The notes under the pieces: model-generated
Databases searched by the model: none
Told to the model about the DNA's origin: nothing
Seen by the model: only the letters and a program-made list of their open reading frames with translations
Origin: an uncultured Actinomycetes bacterium
GTDB taxonomy: Bacteria > Actinomycetota > Thermoleophilia > Gaiellales > Gaiellaceae
Length of the DNA stretch: 64,000 nt
Assembly (NCBI GenBank): GCA_963813435.1
Contig: CAWEYY010000002.1
Coordinates: 554,793 to 618,792 of the forward strand
Direction: 5' to 3'
Program-made: the position numbers and the translations under genes
Shown here: positions 14,233 through 63,429 of the stretch, piece by piece
How positions within the stretch are numbered: position 1 is the stretch's first letter
Layout: the number at the start of each line of letters is the position of its first letter

Positions 14233-15350
14233 GATACGTCGACGAGTTCCGCGACGGGGAGCTTGCGCAGAAGCTCGCGCGCGAGATCGAGACGCTGGTC
14301 GAGCCCGGCCGAGAGGTGAAGATCATGGAGGTCTGCGGCGGCCACACGCACGCGATCTACAAGCACGGCGTCGAGCACCTCGTCCCGCGCGAGGTCGACT
14401 TCGTCCACGGCCCCGGCTGCCCGGTCTGCGTGATTCCGATGGGACGGGTGGACGACGCGATCGCCCTCGCCGAGCGGCCCGAGGTGATCTTCGCGACCTT
14501 CGGCGACATGATGCGCGTCCCCGGCGGCCGCGGCTCGCTGCTGGAGGCGAAGGCCCGCGGAGCCGACGTGCGCATGGTCTACTCGCCGCTGGACGCGCTC
14601 GAACTGGCCCGGCGGAACCCGGACCGCGAGGTCGTCTTCTTCGCGATCGGCTTCGAGACGACGGCACCCGCGACAGCGTTGACACTGCTGCGGGCCCGAG
14701 CCGAGGACGTGCGCAACTTCTCGGCCTTCTGCAACCACGTGACGATCGGGCCTCCGCTGCGCGCGATCCTCGACTCGCCCGGCCTCCGGCTCGACGCGTT
14801 CATCGCTCCGGGCCACGTCTCGACGGTGATCGGCACGCGGCCGTACGACTTCATCGTCGACGAGTACGGCAAGCCCGTGGTCGTGACCGCCTTCGAGCCG
14901 CTCGACATCCTGCAGGCGGTGGTCATGCTGCTGCGCCAGTTGCGCGAGGGCCGCTGCGCGGTCGAGAACCAGTACACGCGCGTCGTGCGTCGCGACGGGA
15001 ACCCGCGGGCGCTCGCCGCGCTCGAGGAGACGATGGAGCTCCGCGACACGTTCGAGTGGCGGGGCCTCGGCTGGATCGAGCGGAGCGCGCTCCGTCTTAG
15101 GCCAGAGCTCGCCGACTGGGACGCCGAGGCCCGCTTCGAGCTACCGGGCAACCGCGTCGAGGACCCGAAGGCCTGCCAGTGCGGCGAGGTGCTGATCGGC
15201 GCGATCAAGCCGTGGGAGTGCCGCGTCTTCGGCACCGCCTGCACGCCCGAGCGGCCGATCGGAACCTGCATGGTCTCGAGCGAGGGCGCCTGCGCGGCCT
15301 ACTACAACTACGGGCGCCTCGCCCGGCCGCGCGACACCGTGACTGCGTGA
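14229..15350 (+). CDS. hypD: hydrogenase maturation protein HypD
   Basis: 373 aa. Motifs MEVCGGHTH, GPGCPVCV and CMVSSEGACAAYY. Confidence 0.9.
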   Translation: MRYVDEFRDGELAQKLAREIETLVEPGREVKIMEVCGGHTHAIYKHGVEHLVPREVDFVHGPGCPVCVIPMGRVDDAIALAERPEVIFATFGDMMRVPGGRGSLLEAKARGADVRMVYSPLDALELARRNPDREVVFFAIGFETTAPATALTLLRARAEDVRNFSAFCNHVTIGPPLRAILDSPGLRLDAFIAPGHVSTVIGTRPYDFIVDEYGKPVVVTAFEPLDILQAVVMLLRQLREGRCAVENQYTRVVRRDGNPRALAALEETMELRDTFEWRGLGWIERSALRLRPELADWDAEARFELPGNRVEDPKACQCGEVLIGAIKPWECRVFGTACTPERPIGTCMVSSEGACAAYYNYGRLARPRDTVTA

Positions 15351-15447
15351 GACGACGCTTGCGGAGTCTCCTTCAGGCCGGGCAGGCTTTGCCTGCTCGG
15401 CCGTCTGAACCGACCGATCGACACGTTTGCCGTCAGGAGCTCCCGCC
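15351..15447 (+). repeat. 97-nt intercistronic structured element, copy A (hypD-hypE)
   Basis: Aligns without gaps to 59314-59410 and 63333-63429 (both minus strand). The first hairpin starts inside the TGA. Long GC hairpin at 15372-15409. ATCGACAC core (GGTCGACAC in the other copies). AGGAG Shine-Dalgarno at 15435-15439. Confidence 0.8.
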
Positions 15448-16498: not shown

Positions 16499-16510
16499 AT
16501 CACGTCAAGA

Positions 16511-16584
16511 GTGTCGACCGGTCAGTGCAGACGGGAGCACGGGCTGGCCCGCGCTCCCTGACAACGGCGTCGCAAGCGAGCGCC
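16511..16584 (-). repeat. structured element, copy D (3' of the cytochrome c gene, no downstream gene)
   Basis: Its sense strand aligns without gaps to positions 1-74 of copies A, B and C. It shares CCGTCTG.AC.TGACCGGTCGACAC. Both hairpins are kept through compensatory changes. Confidence 0.7.
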
Positions 16585-34453: not shown

Positions 34454-37282
34454 TTACGGGGAAGCACCGATTCGCCGGCGGTGCCAGCGGCGGAGTTCGT
34501 CGGTACCCCAGACGATCACTGGAAACACGGCCAGCAGGAGCAGATCGGTCGCCGGGAGCGGCCTCGTCCCGAAGACGGCCTGGAATGCCGGCACGTAGAG
34601 GAGCGCCGCCGTGAACACCAGCTCGAACGCGATCCCCCACAGCAGCGCGCGGTTCGACCAGACGCCGACCGAGCGAAGCGAAGCCTTCGACGTGCGCGCC
34701 GCGAATGCGGTCCCCACCTGGCAGGCGACGATCCCGGCGAAGGTCATCGTCGTCGCCTGGAGGTAGACGTGGTGCAGCGAGCTGCCGACGGCCACCGAAT
34801 CACCCGGCGACCAGCCGGCGCGGAGGAGGACGAAGAAGAAGCCGCCCATCACGAGCCCGGCCGAGATCCCGCCCATGAAGCCCCAGGCACGGACGAGCAG
34901 CTCCCGGCTGATCACTCCTTCGCGCGGGCTGCGCGGCGGCCGCTCCATCAGGCCGGGCTCCGCCGGCTCCTGGCCCAGGGCAAGCGCGGGCAGGGTCTCG
35001 GTGCCCAGGTCGATCGCCAGGATCTGGAGAACGGTCAGCGGCAACGGCACGGCGCCGCCCGAGAGCGCAAAGACGAGGAACGGTACGACCTCGGGAGTGG
35101 CGTGGGCGAAGATGTAGAGGATGAACTTGCGGACGTTGTCGTAGACGCGGCGTCCAGCCTGCACCGCGACCACGATCGTGGCGAAGTTATCGTCGGTCAA
35201 CACCAAAGTCGCCGCCTGGCGCGCGACCTCCGTCCCGCTCTGTCCCATCGCGACGCCGATGTCGGCGCGACGGAGCGCGGGCGCGTCGTTCACCCCGTCG
35301 CCGGTCATCGCCACGACCTCGCCCTCGTCGCGCAGCGCGTCCGCGATCCGGAGCTTCGCTTCGGGTGAGCTGCGCGCGAACACGAGCGCGGGCTCGGTGC
35401 GGAGCAGCTCGCCGAGAGCCGCGTCGCTCAGACGGTCGAGCTCCCGGCCCGTGACCAGCCGGACGCCGTCGCCGACGATCCCGACCCTCCGGGCGATCGC
35501 GACTGCGGTCGGGCCTGCGTCGCCCGTGATCACAACGACGCGAATGCCCGCGCCGTAGCAGCGCGCGACGGCCTCGGCCACCTCGGGGCGCGGCGGGTCG
35601 AAGAGGGCGACGAGCCCGAGGAAGACGAGGTTGCGCTCGACGTCCTCGCGCTCCTCCGGGAGCGGAGTGCCGGCGGGCAGACGCGCCGTGGCCGCCGCGA
35701 GGATCCGCAACCCCTCCCCCGCCCAGCGCTCGCTGCGATCGAGGATCGACTTCCGCTCGTCGGCGGAGAGCGGCCGCTCCGCTCCGTCGGTGCCGAGAAT
35801 CAGCTCGCAACGATCGAGCGCCTCCTCCGGCGCTCCTTTCACGTGGACGTACAGGCCGTCAGGCCGCTCGTCGATCGTGGACATCAGCCTCCGCTCCGCA
35901 TCGAAGTGGAACTCCTTCTTTCGCCCGGACTCGCGCGTTGCGAGCGTGACGTCGGCTCCGAGGAGCGCTGCGGCCCTGAGCAGCGCAAGCTCGGTCGGAT
36001 CGCCCGCATCGGGACCGAGCTCCGCGTTGTTGCACGCCGCGAGCGCCTGCGCGAGCCTCTCTAGCGGAGCCGGGACACGTGAGGGTGCGGCTGAGGCATC
36101 GCTTGCGATGCCGGCATCAGGACGCGCGGGCTCTGCCTGTGCGTCCGTCTGAAATGACCGGTCGAAACGAGCGAGCTCATCCGAAGCCGCCACTGAGAAC
36201 TCGCCGGCATCCGTCCAGACCGCTGTCGCCTGCATGCGGTTCTCGGTCAGCGTCCCCGTCTTGTCCGTGCAGATGACCGTCGTCGAGCCGAGCGTCTCGA
36301 CCGCGCTCAGCCGCTTGACGAGGGCTCCCGAGCGCGCAAGCGCGCGGACGCCGACCGCCAGCGCAAGGGTGATCGTGGGCAGCAAGCCCTCCGGCACGTT
36401 GGCGACGATGAGGCCGATCGCGAACGTGAGCGCGTCGGCTGGAGGAAGCCCGGCGACGAGCGCCCCGAGCGGGAAGAAGACGAAGCCGGCCGCAACGGAG
36501 ACACCAGCGATCAGCCAGGCCACCCGCTTGACCTGAACCTCGAGGGGACTCTCCTCGCGTCGGACCCGCTGCGAGAGCGCCGCGATCCTCCCGAGCTCCG
36601 TGCGCATCCCGGTCGCGACCACAACGGCCCGCGCCTCCCCGCCGATGCAGGCGCTGCCGCTGAAGACGAGGTCGCGCGCCTCCAGGGGCGGAGCCTGCGC
36701 GTCGACGAACTCCGCCGAGCGCGAGACCGGGACCGACTCGCCTGTCAGCGTGGAGACATCGACCTCGATCGCGCCCTCGAGCAGCCGTGCGTCGGCCGAG
36801 ATGCGGTCGCCCTCGGCAAGCAGAAGGATGTCGCCAGGCACGAGCAGTCGCGCCTCGATCACGGTGCGCCCGCCGTCGCGGAGGACGCTCGCGTGCGGCG
36901 GCAGGTAGCTCTCGAGCGCCTCCACGGCGCGCTCGGCCTGACGCTCCTGCAGGAAGGCAAACGCCGCGTTCAGGAGGATGACGCCGACGATCGCAGCCGC
37001 CAGCACGGCCGTGCCTGCAACCAGGGCCAGCAGGGCCGCGACCCAGAGGAGGAGCGCGAGTGGATGCGTCAGCTGGCGGGCCACCTCGCCGGGCCACCGC
37101 CGGCCGGAGGGACGGGCTAGCTGGTTGGAACCCTCGGTGAGCAGTCGCCGCTCGGCCTCGCGGCTCGACAGGCCCTCGGGGGTCGTCCGGAGATGTCGCA
37201 GCAGCAGGTCGGCAGGCTCGTGCAGCTCGAGGGTGGGGTCTCCGGAGTCGACTGCGGCACGGCCGTTCGTCTGTTGAGCCAT
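34454..37282 (-). CDS. P2-type cation-transporting ATPase (CtpF/Ca-ATPase-like)
   Basis: Motifs [15 protein letters not shown] and [11 protein letters not shown], with 10 TM helices. Start set at MAQQTNG; the track ORF extends to 37351. Confidence 0.9.
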
Positions 37283-57758: not shown

Positions 57759-58936
57759 TCGAGCTCAAGTCCGACGTAGTTCTCGGCCAGGCTCGCGGCG
57801 GCCTCGCGTGAGGTCGCCACGTAGCGCAGCTGCGAGAGCTGGAGCTTCAGGTCGAACGCATCCCCGCCAGGGATGCGGTGGAGCATCGACGTCATCCACC
57901 ACGAGAAGTGCTCGGCCCGCCACACGCGGCGCAGGCAGGTGTCCGAGTAGAGCTCGAGCAGGTTCGCATCGCCCGTCTCGTACCAATGGACGAGCGCCTC
58001 GGCGAGCACCCGGATGTCGGCGATCGCGAGGTTGAGGCCCTTGGCGCCGGTCGGTGGGACGATGTGCGCGGCGTCGCCTGCCAGGAACAGCCGGCCGAAC
58101 TGCATCGGCTCGACGACGAAGCTGCGCATTCCGGTCACGCCCTTCTCGAGGATCGGGCCCTCCTCCAGCGTCCAGCCCTCGATGCCGAGGCGCTTCTGCA
58201 GCTCGGCCCAGATCTGCTCGTCCGACCACCCGTCGATGTCCTCGTCGGGCTCGCACTGGATGTAGAGACGGCTCAGGCTTGGTGAGCGCAGGCTCAGCAG
58301 CGCGAAACCGCTCTCGTTGTGCGCGTAGACCAGCTCGTCGCTCGACGGCGCGACCTCGGCGAGGATGCCGAGCCAGCCGAACGGATAGTCACGCGCGAAC
58401 GACTCGAGCACGCCCTCCGGAATGCTCGGGCGGCAGACGCCGTGGTAGCCGTCGCAGCCGGCGATCACGTCGCACTCGAGCTCGAGCCGCTCGCCGTCGT
58501 GGGAGAAGCGGATCCGCGGTTGCTCGGTGTCGAGCTCGTGGACGCTGACGTCGTCGACCTCGAAGAGCAGGGGCAGCTCGCTCTCGATCCGCGCGGCGAT
58601 CAGATCCTTGACGACCTCGGTCTGGCCGTAGATGACGATCGTCCGGCCGTCGGCGAGCTCGCTGAGCGGGATCCGGTGCCGCTCGCCGTCGAACTGGAGC
58701 TCGATCCCGTGGTGGACGATCCCCTCCTCGTGGAGGCGTCCGCCGACCCCCGCCTCGGTGAGCAGCTCGACCGTTCGCTGCTCGAGGACGCCCGCGCGGA
58801 CGCGGTGCTCGACGTAGTCGCGGCTGCGGTTCTCGAGCACGACCGATTCGATCCCGGCCCGCTCGAGGAGTCGCGCGAGCGTCAGCCCGGCCGGCCCGGC
58901 TCCGACGATGCCGACCTGCGTGCGGAGCGTCTTCAC
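57755..58936 (-). CDS. pobA: 4-hydroxybenzoate 3-monooxygenase
   Basis: 393 aa from VKTLRTQVGIVGAGPAGL, with GDAAHIVPPTGAKGLN. GTG in a GTGA overlap with pcaC. Split out of track ORF 57755-59320. Confidence 0.9.
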   Translation of the reverse strand: MKTLRTQVGIVGAGPAGLTLARLLERAGIESVVLENRSRDYVEHRVRAGVLEQRTVELLTEAGVGGRLHEEGIVHHGIELQFDGERHRIPLSELADGRTIVIYGQTEVVKDLIAARIESELPLLFEVDDVSVHELDTEQPRIRFSHDGERLELECDVIAGCDGYHGVCRPSIPEGVLESFARDYPFGWLGILAEVAPSSDELVYAHNESGFALLSLRSPSLSRLYIQCEPDEDIDGWSDEQIWAELQKRLGIEGWTLEEGPILEKGVTGMRSFVVEPMQFGRLFLAGDAAHIVPPTGAKGLNLAIADIRVLAEALVHWYETGDANLLELYSDTCLRRVWRAEHFSWWMTSMLHRIPGGDAFDLKLQLSQLRYVATSREAAASLAENYVGLELE

Positions 58937-59313
58937 TCCCCGTCGCCGGAGCCCGCGACCTCCTGGAAGACCGCGAACGCGCTGTTGGCCGCAGGGACGC
59001 CGCAGTAGACGGCCGTCTGGAGGAGGACCTCCTTGATCTCGTCGAGCGTGAGGCCGTTCCTCCGCGCCGCGCGGATGTGCATGCCGAGCTCGTCGAAGCG
59101 GCCGAGCGCCACGAGCGCGGTCAGCGTGATGCAGCTGCGCGTTTTGCGGTCGAGGCCCTCGCGCGCCCAGATCTCGCCCCAGGCGTAGCGCGTGATGAAG
59201 TCCTGGAAGTCGCGCGTCAGGTCGGTCGTGCGCTCGACCGCGCGGTCGACGTGCTCGTCGCCGAGCACCTCGCGCCGGATCTTCATGCCACGCTCGTAGG
59301 TTTCGTCGCTCAT
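58933..59313 (-). CDS. pcaC: 4-carboxymuconolactone decarboxylase
   Basis: 126 aa, carboxymuconolactone decarboxylase family pattern (YAWGEIWAREGLD...TAVYCGVPAA). Confidence 0.9.
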   Translation of the reverse strand: MSDETYERGMKIRREVLGDEHVDRAVERTTDLTRDFQDFITRYAWGEIWAREGLDRKTRSCITLTALVALGRFDELGMHIRAARRNGLTLDEIKEVLLQTAVYCGVPAANSAFAVFQEVAGSGDGE

Positions 59314-59410
59314 CGATCAACCTTCTGACGGAGAGCGTGTCGACCGGTCAGCTCAGACGGCCGGCCAGGCAGAGCCCGCCCGGCCTGAAGGAGACGAGGC
59401 AAGCGTCGTC
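59314..59410 (-). repeat. 97-nt intercistronic structured element, copy B (pcaD-pcaC)
   Basis: Fills exactly the stop-to-start gap. About 77 of 97 positions are identical to copy A by my count. GAAGG Shine-Dalgarno 7 nt before the pcaC ATG. Confidence 0.8.
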
Positions 59411-60155
59411 TCAGGACCGGACCTCCTGAAGCACGGCGGCCGTCACCGCGTCGGGTTGCTCCACGTTCGCCAGATGGGCCGCATGTGGAACGACGACCGT
59501 CTCGGCTCTCGGAATGCCCTCGCTCAGCGTCTCGACCACGTCGGCCTGTGTCACCGGATCCTCCTCGCCGACGATCACGAGCGTGGGCGTCTCGATCTCG
59601 TCCAGGCGGTCGCGGAAGTCGAAGGCGCCGATCGCCTCGCAGCAGCGGGCGTAGCCCTCCGGCTCGATCGTGAGCAGGTCATCGAGGTAGCTCTGCGCAA
59701 CCGGGGTGTCTCTGAAGCTCGGCGTGAACCAGCGCTCGCGCAGACGGTCGACGAGGGCACCCGTGCCCTCCTCGCGCACCAGCGCGGCCCGCTCGGCCCA
59801 CTCCTCACTCGTGCCGAGCTTCGCGCCCGTGCAACAGAGCGTCAGCGTTTCGATCCGCTCGGGCGCCATAGCGGCGAGACACATTCCGACCATCCCGCCC
59901 AGCGAGAGGCCGCAGAACGAGAACCGATCGCCGTCGATCAAGCTCGAGGACCGCGCATGCGATCTCCTCGACCGACACCGGCCCGTCGGGCACCGGCGAG
60001 TCGCCGTGGCCCGGATGGTCGTGGCGCAGGACGCGGAAGCGGGCGGCGAACGCGTCGAGCTGCGGCTCCCAGAGGCGTGTCGTCGTCCCGAGCGAGTTCG
60101 AGAGCACGAGCAGCGGCGCGTCTTCGGGGCCGTCGAGGCGGCGGGCGAGCTTCAC
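59411..60155 (-). pseudogene. pcaD: 3-oxoadipate enol-lactonase carrying a 1-nt frameshift
   Basis: The N-terminal 72 aa (VKLARRLDGPEDAPLLVLSNSLGT...AVLEL) are in one frame and the C-terminal 176 aa (IDGDRFSFCGLSLGGM...) in another. They join at 59940-59941. Confidence 0.75.
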
Positions 60156-63332: not shown

Positions 63333-63429
63333 AAGCCAACCTTCTGAAGGAGAACGTGTCGACCGCTCGGTTCAGACGGCCGCACGGGCAGAGCCCGTCC
63401 GGCCTGGAGGAGACGACACATGCGTCGTC
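63333..63429 (-). repeat. 97-nt intercistronic structured element, copy C (pcaI-pcaJ)
   Basis: Fills exactly the stop-to-start gap. Perfect 8-bp first hairpin and a 6-bp inner stem with compensatory changes relative to copy A. GAAGG Shine-Dalgarno 7 nt before the GTG. Confidence 0.8.

Follow-up and report, generated by a model that had tools for sequence, protein, structure and literature searches.

Short repeats confined to one Gaiellaceae genus as probable mobile insertions at NTGA stop-start overlaps, including the pcaD-pcaC junction

Introduction

Why should an operon in which most genes overlap or touch their neighbors contain two spacers of exactly the same length? The stretch of Gaiellaceae DNA analyzed here (64,000 nucleotides, referred to as the window) carries a pca operon with the gene order pcaI, pcaJ, pcaH, pcaG, pcaB, pcaD, pcaC, pobA and an aldo-keto reductase (AKR) gene, names that are backed by Pfam matches to CMD, alpha/beta hydrolase, Lyase_1, Dioxygenase_C, CoA_trans and FAD_binding_3. 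The genes overlap by 4 nt at pcaH-pcaG, pcaG-pcaB, pcaB-pcaD, pcaC-pobA and pobA-AKR (GTGA four times and TTGA once), and pcaJ abuts pcaH directly, its TAG being followed at once by ATG. Only the pcaI-pcaJ and pcaD-pcaC junctions have a spacer, and in both it measures exactly 97 nt. The original prediction had described the junctions in this way and had proposed that each spacer holds one copy of a 97-nt element. Reading the junction sequences confirmed both statements, and blastn aligned the two copies over 96 nt at 86% identity (E 2e-28). The same prediction offered two accounts of the element, a function in differential expression or a mobile origin that preserves the function of the operon. 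Which of these accounts better explains the copy between pcaD and pcaC, hereafter copy B, is the question that we address.

Results

Copy B lies on the minus strand, as do the genes on either side of it. The TGA stop codon of pcaD (59411-60155), a gene for a 3-oxoadipate enol-lactonase-like alpha/beta hydrolase, occupies positions 59413-59411, and the ATG of pcaC (58933-59313), a member of the carboxymuconolactone decarboxylase family, occupies positions 59313-59311. The spacer of exactly 97 nt between them is copy B itself (59314-59410), which is a full-length match to both the HMM and the covariance model (CM) of the repeat family. On the left it is bordered by the tetranucleotide CTGA (59411-59414), in which TGA is the pcaD stop codon, and on the right by ATGA (59310-59313), in which ATG is the pcaC start codon and TGA is the stop codon of a mini-frame. 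Together with these two target tetranucleotides, the element forms a 105-nt module (59310-59414) that reads as one open mini-frame, 34 codons followed by TGA, beginning with CTG and not with ATG or GTG.

The module contains two hairpins. Hairpin 1 (59391-59412; GAGACGA paired with TCGTCTC across an 8-nt loop) takes in the last two bases of the pcaD stop codon, so that the predicted inclusion of this codon in the hairpin holds for its GA. The inner pairs of this hairpin are broken in copy B, for which the folding energy is -8.6 kcal/mol versus -14.0 kcal/mol in the consensus and in the orthologous copy of the relative G014. Hairpin 2 (59359-59385), a G+C-rich stem of 12 pairs with a 3-nt loop, is intact (-24.2 kcal/mol). 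It is followed by the unpaired core GTCTGAnnTGACCGGTCGA (59340-59358), which is the most conserved unpaired part of the family. The Shine-Dalgarno sequence GAAGG, 7 nt 5' of the pcaC ATG, had been attributed to the element, and it was indeed located inside copy B, at 59325-59321; the G014 orthologue and the family consensus have GGAGG. Copy B and its G014 orthologue are 96% identical, and their flanks are 91-94% identical. We rejected an intrinsic terminator or promoter at this junction, given that no terminator-like or promoter-like site was found between positions 58900 and 59800 and that no T run follows either hairpin.

Copy B is missing at the orthologous pcaD-pcaC junction in G001, G005, G015, G058 and L002-L004. 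Among the sampled genomes, it was found only in the window genome (the source genome, G000) and in G014, which is one and the same genome as L001. The empty alleles read ...GTCCGTTC ATGA CCGAC in L002, ...GTCCGTTC ATGA GCGAC in L003 and ...GTCAGATC GTGA GCGAC in G001, and the filled allele of the window and G014 reads ...GTCCGGTC CTGA (97 nt) ATGA GCGAC. The comparison with relatives that the original prediction had suggested thus returned a plain ATGA or GTGA overlap at the element-free junction in these three genomes. In G005 and G015, the BLAST pieces meet at the junction and leave no room for an insert, and in G058 there is a gap of 27 nt, far below the length of the insert. Filled alleles have NTGA on both sides of the insert, and empty alleles have a single NTGA. 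The A/G-to-C change in the left tetranucleotide is synonymous (TCA/TCG to TCC) and common to both filled genomes, so the two filled alleles go back to one event. The natural 3' end of pcaD (TCAGGAGGTCCGGTC-CTGA, with the former at 59415-59435, minus strand) resembles the 3' end of the element (TCAGAAGGTTGATCG-ATGA, with the former at 59314-59334), both consisting of a Shine-Dalgarno sequence, a spacer and NTGA; owing to this likeness, BLAST alignments of empty alleles run 10-24 nt past the junction.

The sister copy (copy A; 63333-63429, minus strand) occupies the pcaI-pcaJ junction, flanked by ATGA (63433-63430) and GTGA (63332-63329), and its mini-frame is intact. This junction is filled in the window only, where it reads ...GC ATGA (97 nt) GTGA CA..., and it is empty, with a plain GTGA or ATGA, in L001/G014 and in L002-L004. 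Polymorphism was also seen in the reverse direction, given that at least six further sites that are filled in relatives are plain NTGA in the source genome; two of these involve G001, with flanks that are 93-98% identical. About 458 NTGA overlaps in the source genome are without an element. The R bases of the left and right NTGA were identical in 22 of 37 cases, which is near chance, and nearest-neighbor concordance was also at chance. The second NTGA could be a true target duplication or could be carried by the element.

Comparisons of orthologous copies gave mixed results, the identity of the element ranging from 100% down to 73%, with flanks at 76-98%. Some elements at orthologous junctions were more diverged than their flanks (for example, 87% versus 96.5%), so conservation of the sequence is not uniform; a conserved regulator would fit such divergence less well than turnover or a relaxation of constraint. 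The site at G000 C3:1206985-1207089 is filled both in the source genome and in G001 (L097), with differences at 14 of 105 positions between flanking genes that are about 96.5% identical; this divergence points to an element that was replaced, underwent gene conversion or decayed quickly. At G000 C2:645267-645270, the source genome has a plain ATGA, and the same junction is filled in the close relative G001 (L098) and in the distant G024 (L092). The history of this site involved either independent insertions at one position or a precise loss in the source genome.

Searches with blastn and iterated nhmmer identified about 194 copies of the family in the source genome (3.05 Mb, 69.6% G+C), with both strands equally represented; an ungapped repeat finder overlooked the family, and blastn and nhmmer were required. 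Three subtypes were distinguished. Subtype 1, the operon type, is 97 nt long and includes copies A and B; subtype 2 is approximately 85 nt long and has the hairpins and core of the operon type with a different 3' tail; and subtype 3 is a 62-nt unit of two hairpins that also occurs in tandem arrays. Co-orientation with both neighboring genes was found for 30 of the 40 long copies, and the mid-length copies located between co-oriented genes comprised 26 sense and 26 antisense copies. Outside the window, the shorter subtypes form head-to-tail arrays of 3-5 units (G000 C3:405853-406103, C3:1454354-1454680, C3:542044-542432, C3:1407765-1408036 and C2:47974-48263) with periods of 62, 64, 109, 97 and 100 nt, which makes them VNTR-like in the manner of MIRU loci. 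The window has three other members of the family, at 15348-15439 and 36091-36169 on the plus strand and at 16508-16561 on the minus strand; one is of the operon type with a GTGA...GTGA frame, and two sit at gene 3' ends with fully compensated stems.

A CM built from 20 operon-type copies, whose alignment is gapless at 105 nt, gave matches in 23 of the 24 congeneric genomes, frequently 50 to at least 96 per genome. None of the 16 genomes from the other families of the order matched at comparable scores, with one weak match among them (E 5.8e-5). As judged from these matches, the repeat family is confined to one genus-level clade of the Gaiellaceae, and the relatives of PcaC place the source genome in the Gaiellaceae, among soil MAGs. 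Rfam 15 gave zero matches in the window at the gathering threshold (best sub-threshold scores of 13.9 and 11.9 bits), and our literature search retrieved no relevant description of a Gaiellaceae repeat or of a MITE targeting ATGA junctions. The repeat makes up about 0.5% of these genomes and should not be annotated as small genes or regulatory RNAs.

Within the stems, 95.8% of alignment cells are paired, and changes on both sides were observed at nine pairs, namely, two in hairpin 1 and 7 of the 12 in hairpin 2. None of 500 shuffles attained any of the five covariation measures, and pairing dropped to 32-53% in slid controls. Owing to the high G+C content of the sequence, the fold z-score of the whole element was unremarkable (-1.32); it is covariation, not folding energy, that speaks for structure. 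On the top strand of the element, G:U pairs outnumbered A:C mismatches by 80:4 in copies that are sense to their host genes and by 38:2 in the 29 copies that are antisense to both neighbors, and the paired fraction was the same in sense (95.9%) and antisense (96.0%) copies. Selection on host mRNA would flip this bias in antisense copies. It does not flip, so the constraint acts on the element's own strand, and the hairpins serve the top strand of the element, not the host mRNA. The constrained form is most likely single-stranded DNA during mobilization, given that no reverse transcriptase was found in the genome (RVT_1 had no match in the 92.65% complete G000); a retroelement-mobilized repeat was rejected on the same finding.

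In operon-type copies, the mini-frame shares bases with both neighbors: its RTG start overlaps the TGA of the gene before it, and its terminal TGA overlaps the RTG of the gene after it. The insert, counting one NTGA, is 101 nt (2 mod 3). This relay frame is present in 27 copies of the source genome, 21 of which have exactly 34 codons, and of 27 copies sampled independently in other genomes, 24 had the same 34-codon frame. A GGAGG-type Shine-Dalgarno sequence lies 5-8 nt 5' of the downstream start. Among 46 copies unfiltered for openness, one new stop codon had arisen in the mini-frame and two and nine in the other frames, where the numbers of possible stop-creating changes are 10 for the mini-frame and 5 and 12 for the others; this avoidance of stops is modest (about p = 0.03) and is confounded by structural constraint. 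In 16 of 20 copies, both remaining frames are closed by TGAs in the invariant core GTCTGAAnTGACCGGTCGA (alignment columns 57-75). We infer from sequence that the mini-frame would be translated.

The original prediction had further held that insertion of the element replaces translational coupling by a structured spacer with its own ribosome-binding site. This statement fits copy B, where the left tetranucleotide is CTGA and the start of the frame is lost; the G014 orthologue, too, has CTGA and a mini-frame without a canonical start. It does not fit the family, in which typical copies rebuild coupling via the 34-codon RTGA...RTGA frame and have the Shine-Dalgarno sequence in addition. Given that the relay start of copy B has decayed (from ATGA or GTGA to CTGA), that its hairpin 1 is weakened and that its Shine-Dalgarno sequence is GAAGG, translation of pcaC in this context now probably relies on the Shine-Dalgarno sequence of the element. 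The upstream gene, pcaD, is frameshifted in this assembly by one extra base in GAGCTTGATCGAC (59940-59955, minus strand) relative to G001, G014, G005 and G015, which puts its N-terminal 70 codons (from the GTG at 60155) and its C-terminal 176 codons in different frames. The frameshift could reflect a real pseudogene or an error in the long-read MAG consensus. If it is real, ribosomes would stop about 390 nt before copy B. Expression of pcaC (and of pcaJ) in this organism probably depends on signals borne by the element.

No terminal inverted repeats were apparent by eye, the aligned ends (GACGnCGC... and ...GGTTGGCCn) not being complementary, and no longer autonomous or composite version was noticed among the matches listed in the source genome. 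With such ends, as judged by eye, and with no parent IS found, a MITE of a DDE transposase was rejected. Neither an IS110 transposase nor TnpB was found in G000, and the only Y1 transposase matches in this genome are RAYT-type. Replication-strand bias was absent as well, with leading/lagging counts of 32/42 for mid-length copies and 41/39 for short copies. An IS200/IS605 derivative was rejected on the basis of the RAYT-type Y1 matches, the missing TnpB and the missing lagging-strand bias.

The two RAYT genes in G000 (NF047646, 83.4 and 71.8 bits) are located at C1:45406-45963 (L082:1303-1860) and C1:198377-198760 (L081:1423-1806). Each is flanked on both sides by a hairpin repeat of its own, GGTGTCTGACACC in about 7 copies and CCGAGGGACTGTCCCCCGG in about 12-20 copies, these loci being small REPtrons that have no relation to the family of 194 copies. 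The nearest members of that family are more than 5 kb from either RAYT gene, and no more than three turn up within 10 kb. The element-poor genomes G002, G004, G012 and G013 (0-2 copies) have RAYT genes, and none was found in G024, which has 68 copies of the element, the MAGs in this comparison being incomplete. Across the genus, conservation is poor for RAYT sequences (at most 58% identity) and good for the element. Directly 5' of hairpin 1 is a conserved T(G/A)AG.

Discussion

Our findings are jointly best explained if copy B is a small non-autonomous mobile insertion at an NTGA overlap, with coupling relayed across the insert and with hairpins that act for the element's strand, and we consider this combined explanation likely. 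Of the two accounts originally put forward, the empty sites, the NTGA on both sides of the insert and polymorphism between close relatives strongly support the one of a mobile origin that leaves the operon functional. Because NTGA stands on both sides, the upstream gene keeps its TGA and the downstream gene keeps its RTG start followed by A. We propose that ribosomes finishing the upstream gene would start again on the mini-frame, open up the hairpins and stop where the next gene begins, in which case coupling would be relayed and not lost. The Shine-Dalgarno sequence would provide a second, independent route of initiation. Relay and Shine-Dalgarno sequence together could make insertions near-neutral and allow the element to persist inside operons.

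We considered whether a host function, and not movement, could account for the same data. The element might be a host-selected cis-regulatory RNA whose intercistronic hairpins set differential expression, mRNA processing or stability in operons, a role that would agree with the two stable, covarying hairpins (-8.6 and -24.2 kcal/mol) right after a stop codon, with the strict co-orientation of operon-type copies with their genes and with the 96% identity of copy B between G000 and G014, where the flanks are 91-94% identical. However, hairpin integrity and G:U bias are equal in the 29 antisense copies, whose host mRNA would carry A:C mismatches, and mid-length copies between co-oriented genes are as often antisense as sense (26 each). 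Presence and absence also differ between genomes that are 93-98% identical, other orthologous copies outpace their flanks in divergence, and neither an Rfam match nor a site resembling a terminator or promoter was found. Such a role is improbable, and it is just as improbable that selection for it explains the spread of the element. At the level of the family, a role in differential expression is disfavored because hairpin integrity and G:U bias are the same in antisense copies and because turnover is fast. That the functional product is instead a protein, the repeat unit being a gene for a 34-residue arginine-rich peptide, is very improbable. The frame is open and constant in length in most copies across many genomes, and new stops are rarer in it than in the other two frames, but covariation in the stems freely alters the encoded residues, the peptide varies in its last third, a canonical start is missing in copy B and in its G014 orthologue, and the frame is absent from about 150 related copies that belong to other subtypes; the conservation is best explained at the level of nucleotides and structure. 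The sharing of copy B by G000 and G014 is the one observation in favor of an ancestral intergenic spacer, or a chance hairpin, as the source of the similarity without any insertion. Set against empty sites in at least seven relatives, 194 dispersed copies and a blastn E value of 2e-28 between copies, this possibility is negligible.

With mobile insertion as the preferred explanation, we asked by what means the element could move. A REP/REPIN-type repeat mobilized as single-stranded DNA by a RAYT in trans would be compatible with that explanation, and its cleavage or target site would then be the tetranucleotide with the stop codon, at the hairpin foot. The folding constraint on one strand, independent of host transcription, the T(G/A)AG at the 5' foot of hairpin 1 and a genome that encodes two RAYTs and no detected reverse transcriptase, IS110 transposase or TnpB all point in this direction. 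The RAYT genes, however, are flanked by other REPs and not by the element, RAYT presence does not track the copy number of the element across the genus, RAYTs are poorly conserved (at most 58% identity) and the element is well conserved, and the unit is made of two different hairpins in direct order, not of an inverted REP doublet. Mobilization by a RAYT and the corresponding role of the tetranucleotide both seem unlikely to us, and the RAYT as mobilizer is unsupported. Somewhat more broadly, and with considerable doubt, we suggest that the element might pass through a single-stranded intermediate of its top strand, moved by a hairpin-recognizing enzyme (a RAYT-like HUH enzyme or an undescribed one) that would choose its target by NTGA. 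If NTGA is indeed the target, the transposition system would home in on a signal of the genetic code, and the sequence that it carries would have been rendered harmless by the evolution of a ribosome relay. The family would then also be the first tractable system for MIRU-like movement, with hundreds of datable insertions and many long-read MAGs.

Several known repeat systems resemble the element in part. REP/REPINs are extragenic hairpin repeats of high copy number, in which stem changes are compensated, the foot of the hairpin carries a conserved tetranucleotide and one DNA strand is under constraint. The element shares all of these traits, and RAYT genes occur in its genome; it differs in that it is neither located beside RAYT genes nor arranged as an inverted doublet, and its precise NTGA sites and translatable relay frame are not REP features. 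Membership in a REPtron was rejected, given that the repeats do not flank RAYT genes and that their abundance does not follow RAYT, the latter being weak evidence from incomplete MAGs. Correia/NEMIS MITEs of Neisseria are small and non-autonomous, have a short target repeat on both sides, are often co-transcribed and are polymorphic between strains. The element is likewise a small, polymorphic, non-autonomous insertion that is probably often co-transcribed with its neighbors, and the NTGA on both of its sides may be a repeated target, but it has no terminal inverted repeats and no parent IS was found for it; its target is the stop/start overlap itself, and its orientation is fixed relative to the genes. 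PATEs, which derive from IS200/IS605 elements, have hairpin ends, insert beside a specific tetranucleotide and follow a single-strand logic. All three traits recur here, with hairpins in place of inverted repeats, and a PATE-style insertion next to a tetranucleotide would account for the NTGA on either side with no need for a true duplication. Unlike PATEs, however, the element is found in a genome without IS200-type TnpA or TnpB, it shows no bias for the lagging-strand template, and its left site abuts the hairpin directly.

MIRU loci form tandem arrays, and so do the other subtypes of the Gaiellaceae family, in units of 62-109 nt. MIRUs are described as having no marked dyad symmetry, whereas the Gaiellaceae unit is dominated by two G+C-rich covarying hairpins. 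In the account given by the recent review PMC12548453, which cites Supply et al. 1997, MIRUs are apparently mobile and insert at start codons, the MIRU ORF being coupled to the gene at -4 nt; as far as that account goes, this arrangement probably minimizes the effect on expression (PMC12548453). The Gaiellaceae element, too, is a repeat of small size (about 50-100 nt) that is dispersed within operons, appears to be mobile and appears to affect host genes minimally, and its ORF is coupled to the neighboring gene at -4 nt. Co-orientation with the operon, an ORF that overlaps its neighbors by 4 nt and presence or absence at orthologous sites were all observed. By this analogy, the family is like the MIRUs in how it appears to work, a likeness drawn from descriptions of MIRUs. 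It differs in belonging to another class of Actinomycetota (Thermoleophilia), in having its own Shine-Dalgarno sequence and stops in the other two frames, and in the presence of related subtypes in both orientations and at gene 3' ends. Common descent with the MIRUs is unlikely, given that the family was found in one Gaiellaceae genus only.

The movement of MIRU-type repeats and their tolerance inside operons, an open question since 1997, become testable in this family, which offers hundreds of copies, exact empty sites, recent polymorphisms and a one-strand signature of covarying hairpins. A relay frame of fixed length with its own Shine-Dalgarno sequence would be a natural design that preserves translational coupling after insertion, and it parallels the bicistronic designs used in biotechnology, as these are presented in PMC12548453. 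One operon-type copy outside the window (G000 C3:67909-68067) has a reversed short-type unit inserted inside its hairpin 2; the insert adds 60 nt, and the relay frame is therefore still open, at 54 codons.
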